Origin: an uncultured Chloroflexia bacterium
Lineage (GTDB): Bacteria > Chloroflexota > Anaerolineae > JAAYZQ01
Length of the DNA: 64,000 nt
Direction: 5' to 3'
NCBI GenBank assembly: GCA_963700285.1
Contig: CAVOXA010000015.1
Coordinates: 105,342 to 169,341, forward strand
In this document: in pieces, positions 5,876 to 16,494 of the stretch
Layout of the letters: each line of letters opens with the position of its first letter
Position numbering within the stretch: the stretch's first letter is position 1
Position numbers and translations under genes: made by a program
Notes under the pieces: generated by a model
What the model was told of the DNA's origin: nothing
The model's input: only the letters and a program-made list of their open reading frames with translations
Databases searched by the model: none

Positions 5876-6022
5876 ATATGCTCAGGGTAATCGCAGAAAA
5901 GACATTTCGAGAATTATGTACAGTAAAGCTGGGCAGCACCCTCTGCGGAGAATCACCTGCACATCGGACATGGTCCGGCCAATTCATGCCAGCCACAAAC
6001 TTGTAGAGCCACGCTGTCGAGA

Positions 6023-6472
6023 TCAGAGCCACTTACTCATCAAGTAAAAACGATCCCTATCGTCAAAGCCATTGGACCTGTAGAATCGCTGAGCACCATG
6101 ATTCCCGCGTTCCACTTCGAGATGGAGCGCTCCAATGCCCATCGATCTGGCTTCCAGTTCTACCAGCCCAAGGGTTCTTGCACCAATGCCGCGCCCCCTG
6201 TAACCAGCCTGAATGTAAAACTCGTCTATGAAAGCGTCTCGTCCTCCGAACTCGAGGCTGTAGCCGAATGTCAACACAATGTAGCCTATGGCCAGATTGT
6301 TCCGGCCGATCAGCCAAATGTACCCGAGAGCCTGGTCATTTAGGAGATCCCTCAGGGCAGCAGAAGCGCTAGACTGGTCAAACATGAGTCCATCGTGGGC
6401 ATAGTATTCCTGCATCAGGGCTAGCAGATCAGGTAGGTCATCAACTCCCGCTGGCATGATCCTAACCTGCAC
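6023..6472 (-). CDS. GNAT-family N-acetyltransferase
   Basis: Acetyl-CoA motif QAGYRGRGIGARTL plus RFYRSNGF. GTG 6472 lies 7 nt after GGAGG. The longer ORF start (6553) would overlap the thrC-like gene. Confidence 0.75.
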   Translation of the reverse strand: MQVRIMPAGVDDLPDLLALMQEYYAHDGLMFDQSSASAALRDLLNDQALGYIWLIGRNNLAIGYIVLTFGYSLEFGGRDAFIDEFYIQAGYRGRGIGARTLGLVELEARSMGIGALHLEVERGNHGAQRFYRSNGFDDRDRFYLMSKWL

Positions 6473-6540
6473 CTCGACACCTCCTTGGGTAAGCTGAGCG
6501 GCGAGCAGGCAATACCTCGAATTGCAGCCAAAGCTCCCGG

Positions 6541-7710
6541 CTACTGAGCCCACAGATGCGCGTACTTGAGCCCGCTCCCGGTGTTGAACAGTGCCACTCG
6601 CTCATCATCGTTGATCCAGCCTTGCTGGCGCAAGTGCTGGAAGGCGACGAGTGTGGCAGCGCCTTCAGGGCAGACAAAGATGCCCTGCGTGCGGCCGATG
6701 AGTTTGGCGGCTTCCAGCATCTCCTGGTCGGACACGGCGATAGCCGCGCCGTCGCTCTCGCGCAGGGTACGGAGAATGAGAAAGTCGGCGACAGCTGCTG
6801 GCACACGCAGGCCGTCGGCAACGGTATGCGCGTTTTGCCAAGGGGCGGCGAATTCCTGGCCTTCCTGGAAAGCGCGGACGATGGGTGCGCAGCCCTCTGA
6901 CTGGACGGTGACCATCCGCGGTCGATGGGAGCCGATCCAGCGCAGTTTCTCCATCTCATCAAAGGCTTTCCACATACCGATCAGCCCCGTCCCACCACCC
7001 GTGGGATAGATGATGACGTCGGGCAGTGCCCAGCTCATCTGCTCGGCCAATTCGTAGCCCATGGTCTTTTTGCCTTCCAGGCGGTAGGGTTCCTTCAGGG
7101 TGGAGATATCAAAGCGGTCGAAGCAGCGCACGCCTTCAGCAGCGGCTCGGCCACAATCGGTGATCAGCCCGTCGACCAGGGTCACCTCGGCGCCCAGGAC
7201 GCGGCACTCGGCCACGAACAGGGGGGGCACGTCCTGGGGCATGAACACGTGAGCCTCCATGCCAGCCAGGGCAGCATAGGCGCTCAATGCTCCGGCGGCG
7301 TTACCCGCCGACGGGATCGAAATTGCCTTGACCCCCAATTCGTGGGCACGGGAGACGGCTACTCCCAGGCCCCGTGCTTTGAACGAAGCAGTGGGGTTCA
7401 GGCCCTCGTCCTTGATGTATAATTTCTCAAAGCCGATGGCTTTGCCCAGCTTCGTTGCGTGGATCAATGGTGTCCAGCCCTCACCAAGGCACAAGGTGTA
7501 GCGTGGATCGCGTACAGGGAGCAGTTCACGATAGCGCCACAGTGTTGTCTCGCGCTCGGCAATCTCCTCGCGACTGAGACGTTGGCGCGCGGTTTCAAGA
7601 TCGTAGCGGGCCAGCAGTGGCTTGTCGCACTTTGGGCAGAGATTCCAAAGCCGGTCAGCCTCAAATTCCCTTCCACAAAGGGCACATTCCAGGTAGGACA
7701 GATAGCTCAT
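6541..7710 (-). CDS. thrC: threonine synthase-like PLP enzyme (ThrC family) with N-terminal zinc ribbon
   Basis: 389 aa. CALCG...CPKC ribbon, PLP-lysine motif NPTASFKARG, and the Gly-rich loop PTGGGTGLIG. Confidence 0.75.
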   Translation of the reverse strand: MSYLSYLECALCGREFEADRLWNLCPKCDKPLLARYDLETARQRLSREEIAERETTLWRYRELLPVRDPRYTLCLGEGWTPLIHATKLGKAIGFEKLYIKDEGLNPTASFKARGLGVAVSRAHELGVKAISIPSAGNAAGALSAYAALAGMEAHVFMPQDVPPLFVAECRVLGAEVTLVDGLITDCGRAAAEGVRCFDRFDISTLKEPYRLEGKKTMGYELAEQMSWALPDVIIYPTGGGTGLIGMWKAFDEMEKLRWIGSHRPRMVTVQSEGCAPIVRAFQEGQEFAAPWQNAHTVADGLRVPAAVADFLILRTLRESDGAAIAVSDQEMLEAAKLIGRTQGIFVCPEGAATLVAFQHLRQQGWINDDERVALFNTGSGLKYAHLWAQ

Positions 7711-7826
7711 CTATTGTTTCCTTTTTGACATCTTTTGTCATGAGAAAGGCTTAATGCGGCAGATCTGGATCATCGAGAGAACAGCAGATTGTGACGGGCT
7801 GAGCGAAATCCAGTCTGCATCAGCGA

Positions 7827-9005
7827 TTAGAACGTCACCAAACTTCCCATCAGGGTGATGGTGATGGCGCTCACGACACCAACGATCAGCGCTGCAGCCA
7901 GTCCGACAAAGAAAGGTTTGATACCCAGCCCCTTGAACGATCGAAAATTAGTGCTCAGCCCCACAGCGGCCAGGGCAACCACCAGCAGATAGCCAGCCCA
8001 GGTGTTGAGGGTTGTATAGATGGCCTGCCACGTCTCGGCATCCCACAATCCAAAAGCTTCACCGCCAGCCTTGATCGTGGCATCGCCAATGGACCGGAGC
8101 ATAGCCATGGCCAGGAAGCCCAGGACAAAGAGCGGTAGCAACTTCAGGGGATTGGTCCGCTTTCCAGCGAAATCGTCCTGATCCTGTACCTTACGGGCAT
8201 AGTAGTAGGCCATGAAAGGGATCACAGCCGCCATGAATACGTTGCGTACCAGCTTGGTGACGGTAGCCACGTCGAGGCTCAATGGCGCGGAAAAGACGTC
8301 CGCATATACTTTGGCTGCTCCGACCACCTGGGATGTGTCGTGGATCGAAGTACCCAGGAAGAGGCCTACCTTGATCGCATTTCCGGCAAAGATTACATTG
8401 GCAAGGTAAGGGTAGACGATGGTTGCCAACAAGCCGAATATGGTAATGACCGCCACGGCATAGGCTACTTCTTCCTCTTCGGCATCGATAGCTGGACCAG
8501 TGGCAACAATGGCCGACACTCCGCAGATAGAAGTGCCTACAGCGATCAGGGCGCCCAACCGCTCGGGCAGGTTCAACCACTTGTTGATGCGCGTGGTGAA
8601 AAACAGCGCACCAATGATGCAGGTAACGACGATCGGGATACCATACACCCCCAGCCGGAACACATCAAAGATGGTCAGCCGGATGCCCAGGAGGATGATG
8701 CCCAAACGCAGGATCTTTTTAACAGAGAAAGAGAGTCCGGGCTTGAGCACCTTGGGCATGGGAATGAGCGCGCTAACAATGAGGCCCAGGAGAATGGCCA
8801 GCATCACCGACGAAACCGGGGTCTTGTCGAAACCCATCAAGGTGATGCCGATGAATTTGCTCAGCCAGACACTGAACCAGGCCAATACGATGGCCACGAT
8901 AAGGCCGGGCAGCAAGGATGGCACCTTGTTAACCGTCACCCCCAACAGATTCTTTTCCAAGGCGCTAATCTTGCGCTTGAGGGTTGCCTCCTCTGTGCTA
9001 GTCAT
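7827..9005 (-). CDS. YeiH/UPF0324-family integral membrane protein
   Basis: 392 aa, about 10 TM segments. Family motifs KKILRLGIILLGIRL, GTSICGVSAIVATGPAI and IHDTSQVVGAAK. GGAGG lies 9 nt upstream of the ATG. Confidence 0.7.
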   Translation of the reverse strand: MTSTEEATLKRKISALEKNLLGVTVNKVPSLLPGLIVAIVLAWFSVWLSKFIGITLMGFDKTPVSSVMLAILLGLIVSALIPMPKVLKPGLSFSVKKILRLGIILLGIRLTIFDVFRLGVYGIPIVVTCIIGALFFTTRINKWLNLPERLGALIAVGTSICGVSAIVATGPAIDAEEEEVAYAVAVITIFGLLATIVYPYLANVIFAGNAIKVGLFLGTSIHDTSQVVGAAKVYADVFSAPLSLDVATVTKLVRNVFMAAVIPFMAYYYARKVQDQDDFAGKRTNPLKLLPLFVLGFLAMAMLRSIGDATIKAGGEAFGLWDAETWQAIYTTLNTWAGYLLVVALAAVGLSTNFRSFKGLGIKPFFVGLAAALIVGVVSAITITLMGSLVTF

Positions 9006-9582
9006 GTCCCGATTCCTCCAGTGTGACAGTCTCTTTGCTAAAAAATGCTACAGCAAGTTCATGATTACGACCATAACACCTTAAAAAAGCAAGGCAATCA
9101 TCTGTGACTTGGCAGGTACCAGGCTCTTTCCAAGGCACAACCCGTGGCCTATCAGCGCCGCTCCGGATCCCGTCGGTTATCCTCAGAGGCAACATACGCG
9201 GGGCACCAGGACCAGCCCATAATCTCAGGTACCACCCCACAACACCTCTTGCTCTCATAGACATCCTTCATCTTTGGCCTTGGTGGCTTGGGCACATCCA
9301 ACCCGTGCTCCATTATCTGGGGACAGGTTGGAAGATATTACCACAACAGCATTCTGGTGTCTACCTTACAGAGGCGTGAAGCACCTCCTACTGTTGAGTC
9401 TGGCGATAGCACCGATGTCCTGTTGCGGGCATCTCAGGGCTTCGTCCAGAGGAAACTGGTTGTCAATCTGATTTTGTGTTGCCCCAAAACATGGTATAAT
9501 CCGAAAAGTCGTCATGTTCACAGGAATTTGCTGCAGGGATATGCTGGGCCCAATACCAGCGTCAGGGAGAGGGAAAATCCCG

Positions 9583-10551
9583 ATGTGCTACCAAGAATGT
9601 GCCCTTTACGGTGAATTGGTTCTCTGGCTGCGTGACAAGGCCGCAGAACTGCTGGCCAATGGCGACGGAAAGATCGAGGTAGAGCAGGGGCAGTTGGATG
9701 CTCTCATCCGCGGCTGGTTCTTCACGCCTCGGGATGACCTCCACGGCTGCGCGCCGCGCGACCTGATCTGGGCCGAGCAATTGGGCCAACCCAATCCCGT
9801 CCATCCCGAACACACGGATGAATTCTTTCCAGACGACTGCCCGATCTGTGAGTACGAACGGGCGCATCTAAAAGCGGCCCTGGAATCGGGAGAAGAACAT
9901 GGCTTCCACTGGCATTATGACGATGGGGGCTACCCACTCATTGCCCACTACGATCCTGAAGGCTGGGACGAGCGCTGGGCTGCCGACGTCGCCTTGTCTG
10001 AAGCTATGCACCAGAACGAACTGGAGAACCAGAGTCCACTGGCTGCACCTTCCTATGAACCCCCGCCCACCGATCCCAAAGAAATGGATCCCCAGGCATT
10101 TCTTGAGGCTCTGCGCCAGCCATGGGTCGATCCCGCCCTGCACCGTGCGGCCGAAAAACTTACCGAGTACTGCGACGTCCCCGTTCCCGATCCTGTGACC
10201 GGCTTGCGCTACCGGCGCGTGACCCGGAGCGAAGCGCTTTCCCTGCTGGCCGGCCTCGATGGGCAGGGCGTGGACATCAATGCCCTGCTGACGCAAATAG
10301 ACGCCTGGCCCTATCAGAACATCGCCCTGGACTGGCTTAGCGATCCCCTACAGAATGTGGCTATGTTCTGCCTGGTCCTGGAGCAGGATGCGGCTTCTGG
10401 AGACCAAGATGGCCAAACACGCGTTCGCCAGCACCGAGATTTTGTCTTTGCTCTGGGCAGAGTAGTCCCTCCGAGTGCCCGCATCTGGCTGCGGGGCTGG
10501 CTTGAAGCCGTAGGCATTGGAGCTTTTGCCCCGACCGACCTACCGTTCTGA
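9583..10551 (+). CDS. hypothetical acidic protein (CxxxC / CPIC cysteine pairs), first gene of a three-gene operon
   Basis: ORF 9514..10551. ATG 9583 follows GGGAGAGGG. No family recognised by eye. Confidence 0.5.
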   Translation: MCYQECALYGELVLWLRDKAAELLANGDGKIEVEQGQLDALIRGWFFTPRDDLHGCAPRDLIWAEQLGQPNPVHPEHTDEFFPDDCPICEYERAHLKAALESGEEHGFHWHYDDGGYPLIAHYDPEGWDERWAADVALSEAMHQNELENQSPLAAPSYEPPPTDPKEMDPQAFLEALRQPWVDPALHRAAEKLTEYCDVPVPDPVTGLRYRRVTRSEALSLLAGLDGQGVDINALLTQIDAWPYQNIALDWLSDPLQNVAMFCLVLEQDAASGDQDGQTRVRQHRDFVFALGRVVPPSARIWLRGWLEAVGIGAFAPTDLPF

Positions 10552-10603
10552 ACAAGCCTGCAACGGCAGGATTCTCCGAGCAGGCAGCGCAGAGGAGTCT
10601 GGA

Positions 10604-11620
10604 ATGGAGCTACCTAGCCCAACCATAGAAGAGTACCGTCGCCTCTATGAGGCGGCCAACGCCTTCAAACAGGAAGCCCCCTGGACGTGGATGACCGAAG
10701 ATCAGCTCTTTGCCATCCGCAACCCCGAGACAGGGCAGATTGGCTACGCCAGTGTCATGGGCATGCTGGGAGAACATCTGGCCTTGGCCCTATACCTGGG
10801 TTCGGTGGCGCTGGACGGTTTCTGGCGCATGCAGTACGGCGCATTCAGAGAAAACCCCATTCTGCCCCTGGAGATTCCTCAATTGCAGGCATCCTTTGAG
10901 GATCGAAATACCCTGAATCCCAAGGACCGGGAGGTGATCAAGAGCCTGGGACTCAGCTTCCGTGGAAAACTGGAATGGCCCATGTTCCGTAGCTATGTCC
11001 CAGGCTGCGCGCCCTGGTTCGTCACACCGGAGGAAACCCGCTTCCTAACCGTGGCGCTCGAGCAGGCGTTGAACGTATCTCTCCGGCTCAGGGAGGATCC
11101 TGAATTGCTGGAAGCGCCTGACGAGGAGGAGTACCTGGTACGTCTGCAGACAAAGCAGGGCTGGGCAGATGCATGGTTGCTCCCAGAACCGATCCCAGCA
11201 CGTCCACCACAATCCGTAGATTCCCAGCGACTGGCAGCCATGCGCCGGGATTTCCCCCGCCGGAGGTTCACGTTGCAGGCGGACCTGTTCGCCCTACGCA
11301 GCCAGATCAAGGAGAAGGAGGATCCCCGACCCTACCTGCCCTACATTCTGCTCGTCGTAGAAGCTAACTCGGGCATGGTCCTGGGAACCGATCTCATGAT
11401 TGCCAAGCCATCCCTTGATGCGGTGTGGGCCCAGACGCAGTCAGGCTTCCTGGAGACGGTCGCCCGCCTGGAGAACATACCCAGCCGGATTGCCGTACGT
11501 GACCAACGCCTCTACAATCTCTTGACGCCCATCGCGCGCGGCCTGGGAATCCGGCTACGTGTGTCCCGGCGCCTGCCTGCCTTGGACGAGGCCCGGGCCG
11601 CCATCGAAGTCAGAGTGTAG
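10604..11620 (+). CDS. hypothetical protein (conserved-looking, unknown function)
   Basis: ORF 10517..11620. ATG 10604 follows GAGGAG. The N-terminal EEYRRLYEAANAFKQEAPWTWMTEDQLFAIRNPETGQIGYASVMGMLGEHLALALYLG resembles uncharacterised DUF-type proteins I recall from cyanobacteria and Chloroflexi. Confidence 0.5.
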   Translation: MELPSPTIEEYRRLYEAANAFKQEAPWTWMTEDQLFAIRNPETGQIGYASVMGMLGEHLALALYLGSVALDGFWRMQYGAFRENPILPLEIPQLQASFEDRNTLNPKDREVIKSLGLSFRGKLEWPMFRSYVPGCAPWFVTPEETRFLTVALEQALNVSLRLREDPELLEAPDEEEYLVRLQTKQGWADAWLLPEPIPARPPQSVDSQRLAAMRRDFPRRRFTLQADLFALRSQIKEKEDPRPYLPYILLVVEANSGMVLGTDLMIAKPSLDAVWAQTQSGFLETVARLENIPSRIAVRDQRLYNLLTPIARGLGIRLRVSRRLPALDEARAAIEVRV

Positions 11621-11645
11621 CAGGGGTTTATTCAGAGGATCTACG

Positions 11646-12308
11646 ATGGCCAAGAAATCGATGAAAAAACGTCTGAAAGCGCGCCAACGCAAGCTTGAAC
11701 AGCGCAGGCGCAAGCGAGCCCAGGCCCATTCGCGGGAGGCAAGCCCCACTGCTCGGCCGACCAGACTCCGCGCCCAACTCCAGGAGGCCGGCCAATGGCC
11801 CCTTGAAGACTGTTTGCTGACCCAGGGCTGGCAACAGCCGGGGGAGATCATCCAGATCCTGATTGCCCGCCGCTCGCCTTGGGGCCAGATTGCTGCAGGA
11901 GTGTTTCTGGTGGATCTGGGTTGTTTGGGGGTTAAAAACGCCTTCGCAAGCATGTTCGACTCACGCAGCGGATACAGAAAACTGCGCAACCACATACGTC
12001 GAGATCAAACCCTGGTCACAGCTGACCCGGATCTGGTGGCCAAGATCGTCCGCGAAGGGCTGGTCTATGCACGAAGGCTTGGCTTTGAACCAAATCCTGA
12101 TTACCGGGAGGCAATGTTGGTGCTGGGCGACGCCAATGCCGACGCCTGCGATCTGCCCATTCCGCTGGGCAAAGACGGCAAGCCTTTCTTCATCTCTGGG
12201 CCTTATGACAACATCCCACTGATCATGTCCAAACTCGAGAAGGCGGTGGGATCTGGAGGCTTCTACTACATGCTGGGGTTTGAAGAGCAGGATGGAGTAT
12301 TCGGCTAA
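11646..12308 (+). CDS. hypothetical protein with a strongly basic N-terminus
   Basis: ORF 11559..12308. ATG 11646 follows AGAGGA. MAKKSMKKRLKARQRKLEQRRRKRAQ is followed by a globular part containing FLVDLGCLGVKNAF. Confidence 0.5.
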   Translation: MAKKSMKKRLKARQRKLEQRRRKRAQAHSREASPTARPTRLRAQLQEAGQWPLEDCLLTQGWQQPGEIIQILIARRSPWGQIAAGVFLVDLGCLGVKNAFASMFDSRSGYRKLRNHIRRDQTLVTADPDLVAKIVREGLVYARRLGFEPNPDYREAMLVLGDANADACDLPIPLGKDGKPFFISGPYDNIPLIMSKLEKAVGSGGFYYMLGFEEQDGVFG

Positions 12309-12443
12309 ACAGTAGTCCCTCAAAGATCCCGAACACTAGGTCCGCTCAGGAGCAAAGCTAGGCGATTAGGGTCAGCAAGGCACATCCCCCTCCAAACCTC
12401 GAGTTTGAAGAAGGCTTGATCTGCGTTCCAGCCAGGTAGCCTA

Positions 12444-13646
12444 TCAGGGCAACTGCAGTACTTCCTCCAGTTGCTCCAGTGCCCAGTCGATCTCCTCCTT
12501 GGTAATGACCAGCGGAGGAGCCAAGCGGATTACGTTCCAGTGGGTCTCTTTGCACAGCAGGCCCCGCTCCATCAGGGCAATGCAGAAGCGCCGCGCCCCG
12601 CCAGCCTCTGGATTGAGCACAATGCCGACCCACAGCCCTTTGCCCCGGATCTGCTTGATGTGCGGACTCTCGATCTCGCACAGCCTGCCCAACATGTACG
12701 ATCCCAGTTCGGCCGAGCGCCCGATGAGGTCTTCCTCCACCAGAACCTTGAGCGCCTCTCGGGCCACGGCGCAGGCCAGAGGATTACCGCCATAGGTTGA
12801 ACCGTGGTCGCCCGGTTGGAAGACGCACATTACTTCTCTGCTGGCCAGTACAGCCGAAACGGGGTACATGCCCCCCGACAGCGCCTTGCCAATGGTGACC
12901 ATGTCGGCGCGAACGCCTTCGTGATCGGCAGCGAACAGCTTGCCGGTACGGCCCAAACCGCTCTGGATTTCGTCGGTGACAAGCAGGACCTCGTGCCGGT
13001 CGCAGATCTCCCGAACTTGCCGAAGATAGCCCTCCGGCGGAACGACGACACCACCCTCGCCCTGGATCGGCTCTACCAAGAAAGCCGCGGTGTTGGGGGT
13101 GATCGCGGCCTCCAGTGCAGCCGCGTCACCAAAGGGGATCAGTTCAAAGCCCGGGGTGAAGGGCCCAAAGCCGTCGCGGTACTGTTCTTCCGGCGAAAAG
13201 CTGATGATCGTGATGGTCCGCCCGTGAAAGTTGCCGTGACAGGTGAGGATGTGCGCTCGATCGTCCTTGACACCCTTGACCTCGTAGCCCCACTTGCGGG
13301 CCGCCTTGATGGCCGTCTCGACCGCCTCCGCTCCCGAGTTCATGGGCAGCATCATCTCGTAGCCGGTCAGCTCGCAGAGTTCCCTGGCCAGGAGCGGCAA
13401 CTGGTCGTTGCGAAAGGCACGGCTGGTGAGCGTCAGGCGAGCGGCTTGCTCCACCATCGCCTTGACCAGGCGCGGGTGGCAGTGGCCCTGATTTACAGCC
13501 GAGTAGGCGGCCAAGAAATCCAGGTAGCGCTTGCCTTCGACATCTTCGACCCACACCCCGCTGCCACGGGTCAGCACCACATCCAGGGGCTGGTAGTTTT
13601 GCGCGTTGTACTGTTCCTCGATGGCGATGTACTCTCGTGTATCCAT
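12444..13646 (-). CDS. rocD: ornithine aminotransferase (class-III PLP aminotransferase)
   Basis: [25 protein letters not shown]..., [16 protein letters not shown], and the PLP-lysine context [10 protein letters not shown]. Start taken at ATG 13646. Confidence 0.85.
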
Positions 13647-13751
13647 GGCCCGCCCCAAACAGCGTTGCGTGAAAGGCAATGCGTGAGGGCAAATTCCACA
13701 CCTCACGCATTGCCCTCCACATTCAGGATTCGTATCTCAACCGTTGCCGCT

Positions 13752-15084
13752 CTACGACTCGATGACCTCTACCTTCTCGGTCAGGCCGATGCCCAGCCTG
13801 GCCAGTTCAGCCAGCACCGGTTCATAGATCTCGGGGATCACGGGTACGTGTACACCGGTCAAGTCCCGGGAACTCGCCGTGCAGGATCATTCGGACGGCG
13901 ATGGCCGCCGGCAGGCCCACGGTGCGCGCCATCGAAGTGTCGCCGTTGGGGATGCCATAGTCGATCATGGTGGCCGTGATGGCCTCTTTGCGATCCGGAT
14001 ACTCGGCCACGAACTCGTGCTGCATGACGATCAGTCACGCTCGCCCGGCTTGTAGGCCAGTCTTGGCCTCCATCCGCGCCGCCAGGACGTCGAGACGGGT
14101 ATTCTTGCCCTCCGGCAGCGGCTCATCGGAGAAGAGGCCCAGCCAGTCCAGGTCGGTGATCGGTTTGGAATCGTCGCACATGCCCCACTGCTCGGCCAGG
14201 TACTGGGGGAAATCGGTGTCAGGGCTGACATCCAGCAGGCGGGCCGTGAGTTCGCGGAAGGTCGCCGGTGGCTCAGCAAAAGGGCTATCGTCCAGGAAAC
14301 CCATCTCGGCAATCTTTTTCAGTGTGGCGCACCAGCCCACGTTGCGCAGCGTGCCCCGGAACATCCAGTCGGTGGGCTGGATGCCGTAGATCTCCGGCAT
14401 AGGGCATGCTGTCGCGGTTGGGATAACCCTCAAACTCGCCCAGGCCTTCAATGTACACTGGCCAGTAGTGGTCGAACAGTTCCTCGCCGGGTATCTCGAC
14501 GACTTGGCCATTCCTTTGGAAGCGGGCCGGATTCTTGCCCGCCAGCAGCACACCCTCGCGGGCTCCAGGAGAACTTGTAGCCAAAGGGATTGTCGCTGGC
14601 TTCTGGGGCCGGGCAGACCTCCAGTCCAGGACACAAAGCTGACGATCTTGCCGCCCTTGCCCTCCACTTCGTGGATGACCTTCATGGCCGACATGTGGTC
14701 GATGCCGGGATCCACGCCGATCTCGTTCAGCAGGATGACGCCCGCCTCCTTGGCCGGGCCATCCAGGGCAAGCATCTCATCCTTGACGTAGGAGGTGGTC
14801 ACCATGTGTTTCCCGTGCTTCACACACAGGGCGGCGACCTTGGGATGGTAGACGTAGGGCAGCATGCTGACCGCCAGGTCGCTTTGGCGGATCAGGTCTT
14901 CCATCGCTGCCTCGTCTGTCACGTCGAGGGCAATGGCCCTACCCCGGGGATGGCCATCGATCAGCGCTTCCGCCTTGCTCACCGTGCGGCTGGCCACGGT
15001 CACTTCAAAGTCCGGCACGTCCAACAGGTAGCGGACGTGTGGCCTGGTCACCAGGCCGGCTCCGAGTACGAGAACTTTTTTCAT
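13752..15084 (-). pseudogene. saccharopine dehydrogenase (LYS9 / AASS-SDH-like), interrupted by at least 4 frameshifts
   Basis: The N-terminus MKKVLVLGAGLVTRPHVRYLL (Rossmann) is intact. The homologous sequence then continues across ORFs 14035..15084, 14448..14636, 14285..14584 and 13822..14025 in different frames. A final frame ends ...LTEKVEVIES with TAG at 13752. Confidence 0.75.
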
Positions 15085-15177
15085 TGGTCTAGTCCCTCCA
15101 CAGTCTCAGATCTGCTCTTTGTCCATTGGCAACACGCAACATGAATCACAAGTACGCAGTCACTATTGCGCTGTCAG

Positions 15178-16494
15178 CTAGTCCAGAAACTCCTGGATGT
15201 ACTGGTAGTCCGGCGTCAATTGGCCTCGGTAGGCAATGACCGCCCGCTTGATCTCCGGCGGCAGGTCGCAGTCCTCAAAGGATGCAGAAAAGTCACATCT
15301 GGGCCATGGCCGGGATAAAGGGCGCAAGAACGTGGCTAAAGTCGGCGGATGCTTCGCGGGGCAGTTCGCTGGGCAGGATCTCCACGGCCATGATGACGAC
15401 GCCCGGTCCCTCGTGACCGTCAGTCACCGCGCCGGTCAGCGGGTTCGTAGACGTAGATCGGGTCGCCCGGCTCGGTCGCTTTGACCGTACATTCGATGGC
15501 CCCCTCCACGTCACAACTGATGTCGCCGATGACGCGCAGACCGGGGCTTGGCCTCGGCCGCCAAACAGCGTCTTGAGATAGGCTTTGGTCACCAGGCGCG
15601 GATAGGCATCGGTCCAAAAGATGGCGTTGACCAGCACGGTCAGGTGTGGCACGTACTGCTCAAAGACTCCTCTGTACTTCTCCGGGTGATCATAGTAGTC
15701 CTGCAGCTCAAAGACGCCATCCGGCGACGCTGGCTCTACCATGTGCCATTCTTTGAACACCGCCTTGTAGAGGTGATGCCGGGAATAGTCGGTACTCGCT
15801 GCGACGGTGGCCACTTCCTCTGGCTCGATCTCGATGACGGGCAGCAGATCGAGCATTTCTTGGGCGCCTCGCGAGACGTTGCCATAGCCAGCCACGCCGA
15901 CGATGAGTGGCGTGACCTGTTCGGGCAGGCCCTCGGTCTCGATCCTGGCTCGCACCTGCGCCAGGGCCTGCTTTGGCCTCGGCCAGGTCGTGGTAGGTGT
16001 GGGTCTGGCGCAGTTCGACGAAGGGGTTGGCGATGCCTTCCCAGGCCAGTCGCTGGCCCAATGCCCACAGGGTGTCGATCATGCCCGCCACGCCGGCGTG
16101 CCAGCCAAAGAAGATGAGCCGGCGGTTCTTCTCGTCAACCACCCGCTCATAGTCGATCAACGTACAGCCCAGGTCGAGCATCCGCCGCAGCATGGGCATG
16201 TTGTAGGGCTGTCCCTTGATGACGTGGGCGAAAAAGACATAGGTCTTGTCTGGCTCAAAGGACCCCTTCGGGATCTCTTTGATGCCAAGGATGATGGGGC
16301 AGGAGACAGATCCTCTTGGACGGGGATGCCCGCTTCGGCGAACTCGGCTCGGTAAAGGCCCGCATGGGTGACGTCTGGGCTATCACCTGAATGCCGTGCT
16401 CCCGTTGAAGCTTGACGGCATCCTGGGGGGTAATGGGCACCCGCCGCTCCCATTCACTCTTGTCTTCGCGACGAAGTCCGATCATTGCGGTCAT
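15178..16494 (-). pseudogene. lysine-2-oxoglutarate reductase (AASS-LKR / AlaDH-like domain), interrupted by at least 4 frameshifts
   Basis: IGLRREDKSEWERRVPITP, LIDYERVVDEKNRRLIFFGWHAGVAGMIDTLWALG, GYGNVSRGAQEM, ISCDVEGAIECT and EIKRAVIAYRGQLTPDYQYIQEFLD are spread over ORFs 16255..16494, 16157..16453, 15708..16199, 15293..15955 and a further frame ending at TAG 15178. Confidence 0.7.

Follow-up and report, generated by a model that had tools for sequence, protein, structure and literature searches.

We examined three adjacent genes, here called g1, g2 and g3 in 5' to 3' order, in a 64,000-nucleotide (nt) stretch of DNA from an uncultured Chloroflexia bacterium (GenBank assembly GCA_963700285.1, contig CAVOXA010000015.1; the whole stretch is referred to as the window and its coordinates are used throughout). 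An initial annotation, made from the sequence alone, had tentatively proposed a tight operon built from paralogous copies of one uncharacterised fold plus a cysteine-containing partner. A conserved operon of a repeated new fold, as first posed, does not hold up. We consider it reasonably probable that the three are unrelated accessory genes, each single-copy and from its own conserved family, juxtaposed in the ancestor of the genus, with neither a conserved three-part machine nor a shared domain that we could detect. The locus is a stack, at the level of the genus, of three conserved orphans, arranged as follows:

9583..10551, + strand: g1, 322 amino acids (aa), acidic (isoelectric point, pI, 4.45), mostly helical and two-part, without a curated family
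10604..11620, + strand: g2, 338 aa, DUF7309 plus DUF6930
11646..12308, + strand: g3, 220 aa, pI 9.84, a large family without a curated model
9565-9574: Shine-Dalgarno-like run of g1, GGGAGAGGGA
10591-10597: Shine-Dalgarno-like run of g2, AGAGGAG
11634-11639: Shine-Dalgarno-like run of g3, AGAGGA

The physical description given in the initial annotation was verified from the sequence: three + strand open reading frames (ORFs), gaps of exactly 52 nt (g1-g2) and 25 nt (g2-g3), purine-rich ribosome-binding sites 6-8 nt 5' of each of the three ATGs, an acidic g1, and every quoted peptide segment present in the proteins. The operon-like spacing of three real genes is thus borne out, and the trio is putatively, and probably, co-transcribed.

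Absence of a detectable shared domain

The proposed repeat was based on a likeness, seen by eye, between an N-terminal and a C-terminal segment of g2 and a segment of g3. This likeness is not above chance, with BLASTP between the proteins returning E-values of 0.34 or higher. For the profile-profile check of the putative repeats, hhalign was applied to 10 pairings among g2 residues 1-185, g2 200-338, g3 40-220, g1 1-145 and g1 165-322, and three pairings were redone with larger alignments (147 g3-domain sequences; g2 domains including permuted forms), these giving probabilities of 0.07-0.34%. All 13 comparisons remained at or below 1.0% probability and in none of them were the quoted segments aligned to each other. 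In the structural model of g3 the quoted segment corresponds to three consecutive antiparallel strands (68-76, 82-90 and 95-104), and any stretch of strand-turn-strand type would produce such a likeness by eye. No repeated domain shared among g1, g2 and g3 is therefore detectable by sequence or profile, and neither method lends support to paralogous copies of one fold accompanied by a Cys-containing partner.

The trio is not conserved as a unit

In order to assess gene order elsewhere we used 80 g3 loci from species-representative genomes (68 of them with at least 1,100 nt upstream), 41 g1 loci (38 with at least 700 nt downstream) and 160 g2 loci (80 from genomes and 80 from metagenomes), the last gathered with a close g2 alignment, since a search by g2 sequence alone found no relative. 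The complete trio was present in 0/80 g3, 0/41 g1 and 0/160 g2 loci, so that the co-conservation to be expected of the proposed operon is largely wanting. Adjacent in another genome, the three were seen as remnants only, in the congener described below. Only the pairs g1-g3 and g2-g3 recur, neither of them in more than a minority of loci. In 8 of the 80 g3 loci g1 is the gene immediately upstream of g3 on the same strand, with gaps of approximately 13-110 nt, and a further 2 loci retain short C-terminal g1 remnants; g2 lies upstream of g3 in 2/80. Viewed from g1, the downstream gene is g3 in 8/38 loci and g2 in 0/38. g3 follows g2 in 2/68 genome loci and 2/56 metagenome contigs, and g1 was found before g2 in 0/70 and 0/50 respectively.

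Clustering by BLAST identified other tight upstream neighbours of g3, namely valyl-tRNA synthetase (11 loci, 3 confirmed by Pfam) and 6-phosphogluconate dehydrogenase (6 loci, 2 confirmed by Pfam), the remainder being many single housekeeping genes. Downstream of g1, an AlaDh_PNT-type dehydrogenase was found in 8 loci and an ABC permease in 4, besides others. In one shared context, running from gnd to a 2-hydroxyacid dehydrogenase and TIM, either g1 or g3 can be absent singly: gnd is followed by g3 without g1 in 6 loci, and in loci L151 and L125 the dehydrogenase or TIM comes immediately after g1, which argues against strict mutual dependence.

The distribution of the genes across genomes was assessed in an even set of 151 genomes of the class, which are related to one another so that the counts overstate independence. 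g1 was clearly present in 5, g2 (near full length, split or cut) in 22 and g3 in 16, or 19 with the g3-family profile, and on these counts all three families are patchy accessory genes. g3 also occurred in 5/5 of the genomes with a clear g1, and g2 in 9 of the 16 g3-bearing genomes compared with 22/151 overall. Amongst 23 genomes of the family, g3 was found in 6, full-length g1 in 4 (with remnants in 2 more) and near-full-length g2 in 6. One other family genome, G159, carries all three, with g2 and g3 adjacent in that order and g1 on a separate contig, where neither g2 nor g3 occurs within the 1,061 nt 3' of it. Two genomes, G152 (81% complete) and G164 (90% complete), have a full g1 and no g3 was found in them.

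Gene-by-gene loss in a congeneric genome

A second genome of the same genus, G151, aligns by blastn (contig G151:C3) to both flanks of the trio, at 89.8% identity over 6014-9529 and 89.5% over 12316-15963, and identity is 85-90% on the flanks and on both intergenic remnants. Between the flanks the two genomes differ as follows:

9530..10090 (561 nt), absent in G151: g1 start and N-terminal half
10091-10616, kept in G151: g1 C-terminal half, g1-g2 spacer and first 13 nt of g2
10617..11518 (902 nt), absent in G151: most of g2
11519-11647, kept in G151: g2 end, spacer and first two bases of g3
11648..12315 (668 nt), absent in G151: all of g3 past its first two bases

Since each gene has full-length homologues outside the genus, deletion in G151 is more parsimonious than gain here, which dates the trio to before the two species diverged and shows it to be dispensable. 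A search of the whole of G151, a genome 90% complete, with this g3 as query returned no g3. The g1 remnant retains 86% protein identity, and its ratio of non-synonymous to synonymous substitution rates (0.36, against 0.08-0.13 in three flanking genes) fits relaxed selection over part of the branch. Joint loss of this kind is compatible with a functional unit and, equally, with three genes each useless by itself in this lineage.

g2 combines DUF7309 and DUF6930

The initial annotation assigned none of the three proteins to a family of known function. This holds, but g2 does match two curated Pfam families over their full length, the function of neither of which is known:

10637..11143, + strand: DUF7309 (PF23988), g2 residues 12-180, E = 4.9e-55, 185.9 bits, model positions 2-170 of 170
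11237..11605, + strand: DUF6930 (PF22007), g2 residues 212-334, E = 2.4e-24, 86.4 bits, model positions 4-122 of 123

Both matches exceed the gathering score of 27 bits, and DUF6930 is matched only once in the whole genome. We recovered 722 g2 homologues; both domains are present in all 120 of those listed, which are named 'hypothetical' or after the DUFs, and in all 19 aligned homologues. Judging by record titles, the g2 loci come from Chloroflexota, Acidobacteriota, Bacillota, Desulfobacterales, Nitrospirota and others. Some members of these families differ from g2 in having the domains in reverse order or TPR/ST7 tails: DUF6930 comes first in five distant, longer relatives (L025, L027, L028, L029 and L031), one of which has a TPR/ST7-like tail. 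From their sequences, DUF6930 and DUF7309 thus appear to behave as one module that tolerates permutation.

A full-text literature search for 'DUF6930' or 'DUF7309' found no papers. Nothing significant was matched by g2 in NCBIfam, PADLOC or PHROGs, and a profile search of the PDB gave no match below E 0.03. The DUF6930 part bears a recurrent weak likeness to Tab2/ATAB2 (DUF1092) through Tab2-like_N (PF06485; residues 274-329, E = 0.02). This match differs from a true family assignment in falling below the cut-off (15.3 bits against a gathering score of 25) and in covering about half of the model; it recurs at E ≤ 1 in 5 of the 19 aligned homologues, none better than 0.02. One DUF6930/DUF7309 cluster is automatically named 'GNAT family' in a protein atlas, an assignment that we rejected as it has no other support.

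g3 belongs to a large uncatalogued family

Word-indexed searching yielded 517 homologues of g3, every one of them unnamed or 'hypothetical'; any that are named come from Anaerolineae or Chloroflexota bins. An exhaustive profile search from the g3 alignment, counted in clusters of 50% identity, extended the family to 3,768 at E ≤ 1e-3, of which 882 reached E ≤ 1e-30. g3 itself has no Pfam match at E ≤ 1, no match in NCBIfam or PADLOC and nothing significant in PHROGs. When 97 diverse members were compared with Pfam at E ≤ 1, no family was matched by more than 2 of them and WGR was not among the matches. Searches of the PDB with the g3 profile, a wide g3 alignment and two fused forms gave nothing below E 0.03.

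The g3 model has a mean predicted local distance difference test score (pLDDT) of 89.5 and a predicted template modelling score (pTM) of 0.76. It runs from a basic helix (4-30) and a second helix (37-48) into four antiparallel strands (53-104) and a helix (107-120); beyond a short strand come a further helix (128-144) and, at the C-terminus, a small alpha/beta part. Two parts of the protein are of particular relevance here:

11646..11753, + strand: Lys/Arg-rich N-terminal tail, residues 1-36, 15 Lys/Arg against 2 Asp/Glu, helix 4-30 in the model
11769..12035, + strand: core, residues 42-130, four antiparallel strands plus a helix, containing the motif quoted in the initial annotation and the invariant R75, D90, C93, G95 and K97

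The N-terminus is as strongly basic as first described, and this basic pattern is retained in the family consensus. Over the 97 diverse members the invariant or near-invariant polar residues are R75, D90, C93, K97, Y141 and D188, and Gly/Pro residues are conserved at 175-186. Foldseek comparison of the model with the PDB and BFVD gave no hit at E ≤ 0.001; phage WGR proteins appeared in the BFVD search with probabilities of 0.84-0.92. Among known systems, the g3 core is compared here with the WGR domain of PARP1, PARP2 and PARP3, which binds nucleic-acid breaks.

At least 100 extra C-terminal residues are carried by 28 of the 150 best g3 representatives, and these extensions fall into several unrelated groups (12, 4, 3, 3 and 2 members, plus 4 singletons). 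Among 33 proteins scanned, Pfam recognised only TPR repeats in 3, CcbP-like calcium-binding domains in 2 and a borderline C-terminal Xre/MbcA/ParS match in 3, one of these above the cut-off. Fusion to a g1 or g2 domain was found in none of the 150 listed representatives, and the extensions showed no match to the g1 or g2 profiles (at most 5.4% probability). A weak g3-like core (profile positions approximately 43-164, E 1e-6 to 1e-8) was also seen within proteins of 659-814 aa which, by eye from the translations, have a basic N-terminus and HEAT-like repeats, one with TPR:

L321, 1356-3701, - strand
L322, 1705-4035, + strand
L323, 1363-3804, - strand
L324, 1227-3203, + strand

The g3 genes next to valyl-tRNA synthetase (valS) lie 26-219 nt 3' of it on the same strand and form a distant subfamily (37-44% identity), in loci L085, L089, L090, L091, L093, L095, L096, L097, L100, L101 and L103. 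A g3 paralogue in L034 adjoins the seryl-tRNA synthetase gene (serS). The position of g3 behind aminoacyl-tRNA synthetase genes hints at RNA, and could equally be inherited synteny. SWIM zinc-finger proteins are encoded upstream of g3 in two loci, directly in L113 (3710-4645) and four genes upstream of a g1-g3 pair in L035 (883-2619). In L038 (G099:C23:27000-34000) a g3 paralogue lies among small same-strand ORFs without families, beside matches to PRiA4_ORF3, UPF0158 and AbiEi_4, surroundings that look like a variable cluster of orphan genes.

g1 carries an invariant DDCPxC motif

Two Cys pairs had been noted in g1. Both are present, but over 31 aligned homologues only CPxC is conserved and the N-terminal CxxxC is not:

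9832..9849, + strand: DDCPIC, g1 residues 84-89, the sole invariant Cys pair, at the start of helix 87-101 in the model

Conservation across this motif is 30/31 for D84, D85 and C89, 31/31 for C86 and 28/31 for P87; other candidate ligands are less constant (C2 11/31, C6 15/31, H54 25/31 and C56 22/31). A four-ligand zinc site is unsupported because the N-terminal CxxxC is unconserved. We likewise rejected a rubredoxin-like protein, RUBY_RBDX scoring 12.4 bits against a cut-off of 26.5 with one invariant Cys pair only. The 164 homologues from the word-indexed search are all unnamed or 'hypothetical' and, where named, derive from Anaerolineae or Chloroflexota bins. No match to g1 was found in Pfam, NCBIfam or PADLOC, nothing significant in PHROGs, and none below E 0.03 in a profile search of the PDB. 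The model (pLDDT 75.6, pTM 0.46) consists of two mostly helical halves and found no structural match in the PDB by Foldseek at E ≤ 0.001.

The start of g1 at 9583 is supported because homologues span 100% of the 322 residues. The database protein for g1 (P0123) has 256 aa, 80% of this reading, and the homologues favour the longer form. Tandem copies occur in two loci, L126 (2264-4159) and L146 (4001-6425), where a second, more divergent g1-like gene comes next on the same strand.

Genomic setting

The trio is flanked on both sides by opposite-strand genes, and a candidate promoter-like site lies in the divergent intergenic region:

7827-9005, - strand: upstream neighbour, a membrane-protein gene
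9517..9545, + strand: candidate promoter-like site in the 577-nt divergent region 5' of g1, with 9/12 matches in a consensus scan alone, which does not amount to evidence of function
12444-13706, - strand: downstream neighbour, an ornithine-aminotransferase-like gene

The promoter and terminator scan of the locus was uninformative. Each of g1, g2 and g3 is single-copy in this genome, and the G+C content of the trio (0.55-0.61 over 9-13 kb) resembles that of the remaining window. Sequencing runs carrying matching words do so in small shares (≤ 0.19 of the words), with matching contigs of read length only; the g1-g2 junction is spanned by two DNA contigs, each from a run of a different study. 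A pair of contigs from one RNA library falls inside g1 and g3 has no cover, which bears neither for nor against transcription. Further downstream, on the - strand at 14035-16199, saccharopine-dehydrogenase-like and AlaDh/PNT-like coding sequence is broken up among overlapping ORFs that lie in different frames (14035-15084 with 14285-14584; 15293-15955 with 15708-16199), which suggests frameshifts, either from assembly errors or in decaying genes; this region aligns to G151 at 89.5%.

A candidate mechanism and alternative explanations

Within the favoured reading of three unrelated, juxtaposed accessory genes, a mechanism can be proposed in which g3 would be the working core and would bind nucleic acid, whether at DNA ends or nicks or as structured RNA. 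The N-terminal helix, with its conserved Lys/Arg richness, and a sheet-plus-helix domain of WGR-like type would make the contact, and the cluster of R75, D90, C93, K97, Y141 and D188 would form a binding or catalytic site. g1, acidic and with its invariant DDCPxC, and g2 may be alternative, optional upstream partners that modulate g3. The confidence of the g3 model, the phage WGR proteins in BFVD and the conserved basic tail speak for the nucleic-acid part. Taken jointly, core, polar site and partners make a tentative scheme that we would not yet call likely. A complex prediction for g1, g2 and g3 with g3 as partner scored 0.00 in two runs without controls and carries no weight either way. More ambitiously, g3 could be the founder of a large nucleic-acid-sensing family in whose members a divergent WGR-like domain would be joined by the conserved Arg/Lys-rich helix and by a new C-terminal subdomain bearing the invariant Arg-Asp-Cys-Lys-Tyr-Asp cluster. 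Its partners would be exchangeable (g1, the DUF7309-DUF6930 gene, or fused TPR, HEAT or CcbP-like tails), in a modular sensing or repair system that is fullest in this genus and was discarded as a unit by the sister species; we regard this as improbable.

Several points weigh against the reading set out above. The W-G-R signature is unconserved, and neither g3 nor any of the 97 members matches the WGR model of Pfam. The pairings with g1 and g2 may reflect synteny only, because g3 follows many different upstream genes. As regards juxtaposition itself, a real functional unit, and not chance stacking, could account for the joint loss in G151 and for the tight pairs that recur.

This last point leads to a real modular system, in which g3 would be the effector, g1 and g2 interchangeable or additive adaptor-regulator subunits that bind it, and this genus the holder of the full three-part version. 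The recurrence of tight same-strand g1-g3 and g2-g3 pairs, the co-occurrence of g3 with g1 and the enrichment of g2 in g3-bearing class genomes all agree with it, as do the gutting of all three genes in G151 between intact flanks and the complementary charges of g1 and the g3 tail. However, most loci of each family lack the other two, g1 or g3 is lost singly in the gnd context, G152 and G164 retain a full g1 with no g3 found, the listed g3 representatives include no g1 or g2 fusion, and the samples come from related and hence non-independent genomes. On balance we think such a system unlikely.

A further explanation would place the genes as cargo in a variable island, such as a defence or conflict system gained and lost among closely related genomes. 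The patchy distribution of the families, the absence of the genes from the congener G151, the surroundings of the g3 paralogue in L038 and the SWIM proteins near g3 in L035 and L113 would suit this, but PADLOC returned 0 families per protein at E ≤ 1, no integrase, transposase or tRNA gene was seen among the ORFs of 6000-16000, and the G+C content does not depart from the rest of the window. G151, moreover, differs by three internal deletions and not by block excision, and most genes around the homologues are housekeeping ones; we think an island very unlikely.

The least probable explanation is the one first proposed, in which one fold would recur in paralogous copies, as the N-terminal and C-terminal parts of g2 and the core of g3, with a Cys-containing partner. 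In its favour, the quoted segments are all of strand-turn-strand type, the DUF6930/DUF7309 module and the g3 domain are both found fused to TPR repeats, and the weak signal of DUF6930 is to Tab2-like_N, a family that Majorek et al. (2014; PMC3985635) place in the RNase H-like superfamily, whose fold likewise opens with a three-strand meander. Against it, the BLASTP and profile comparisons are null, the Tab2 signal is under the Pfam cut-off and the g3 model matches WGR-like and not RNase H-like proteins.

Implications

g3 belongs to a family of thousands of clusters, in Chloroflexota and other phyla, without a curated model, and its confident predicted structure and clear set of invariant polar residues recommend it for a new family entry. 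A second uncatalogued family is that of g1, marked by the invariant DDCPxC, and DUF7309 and DUF6930 are found together whichever of them comes first. The congener, in which a separate clean deletion has struck each of the three genes, provides a natural experiment, from which it follows that the set is dispensable.

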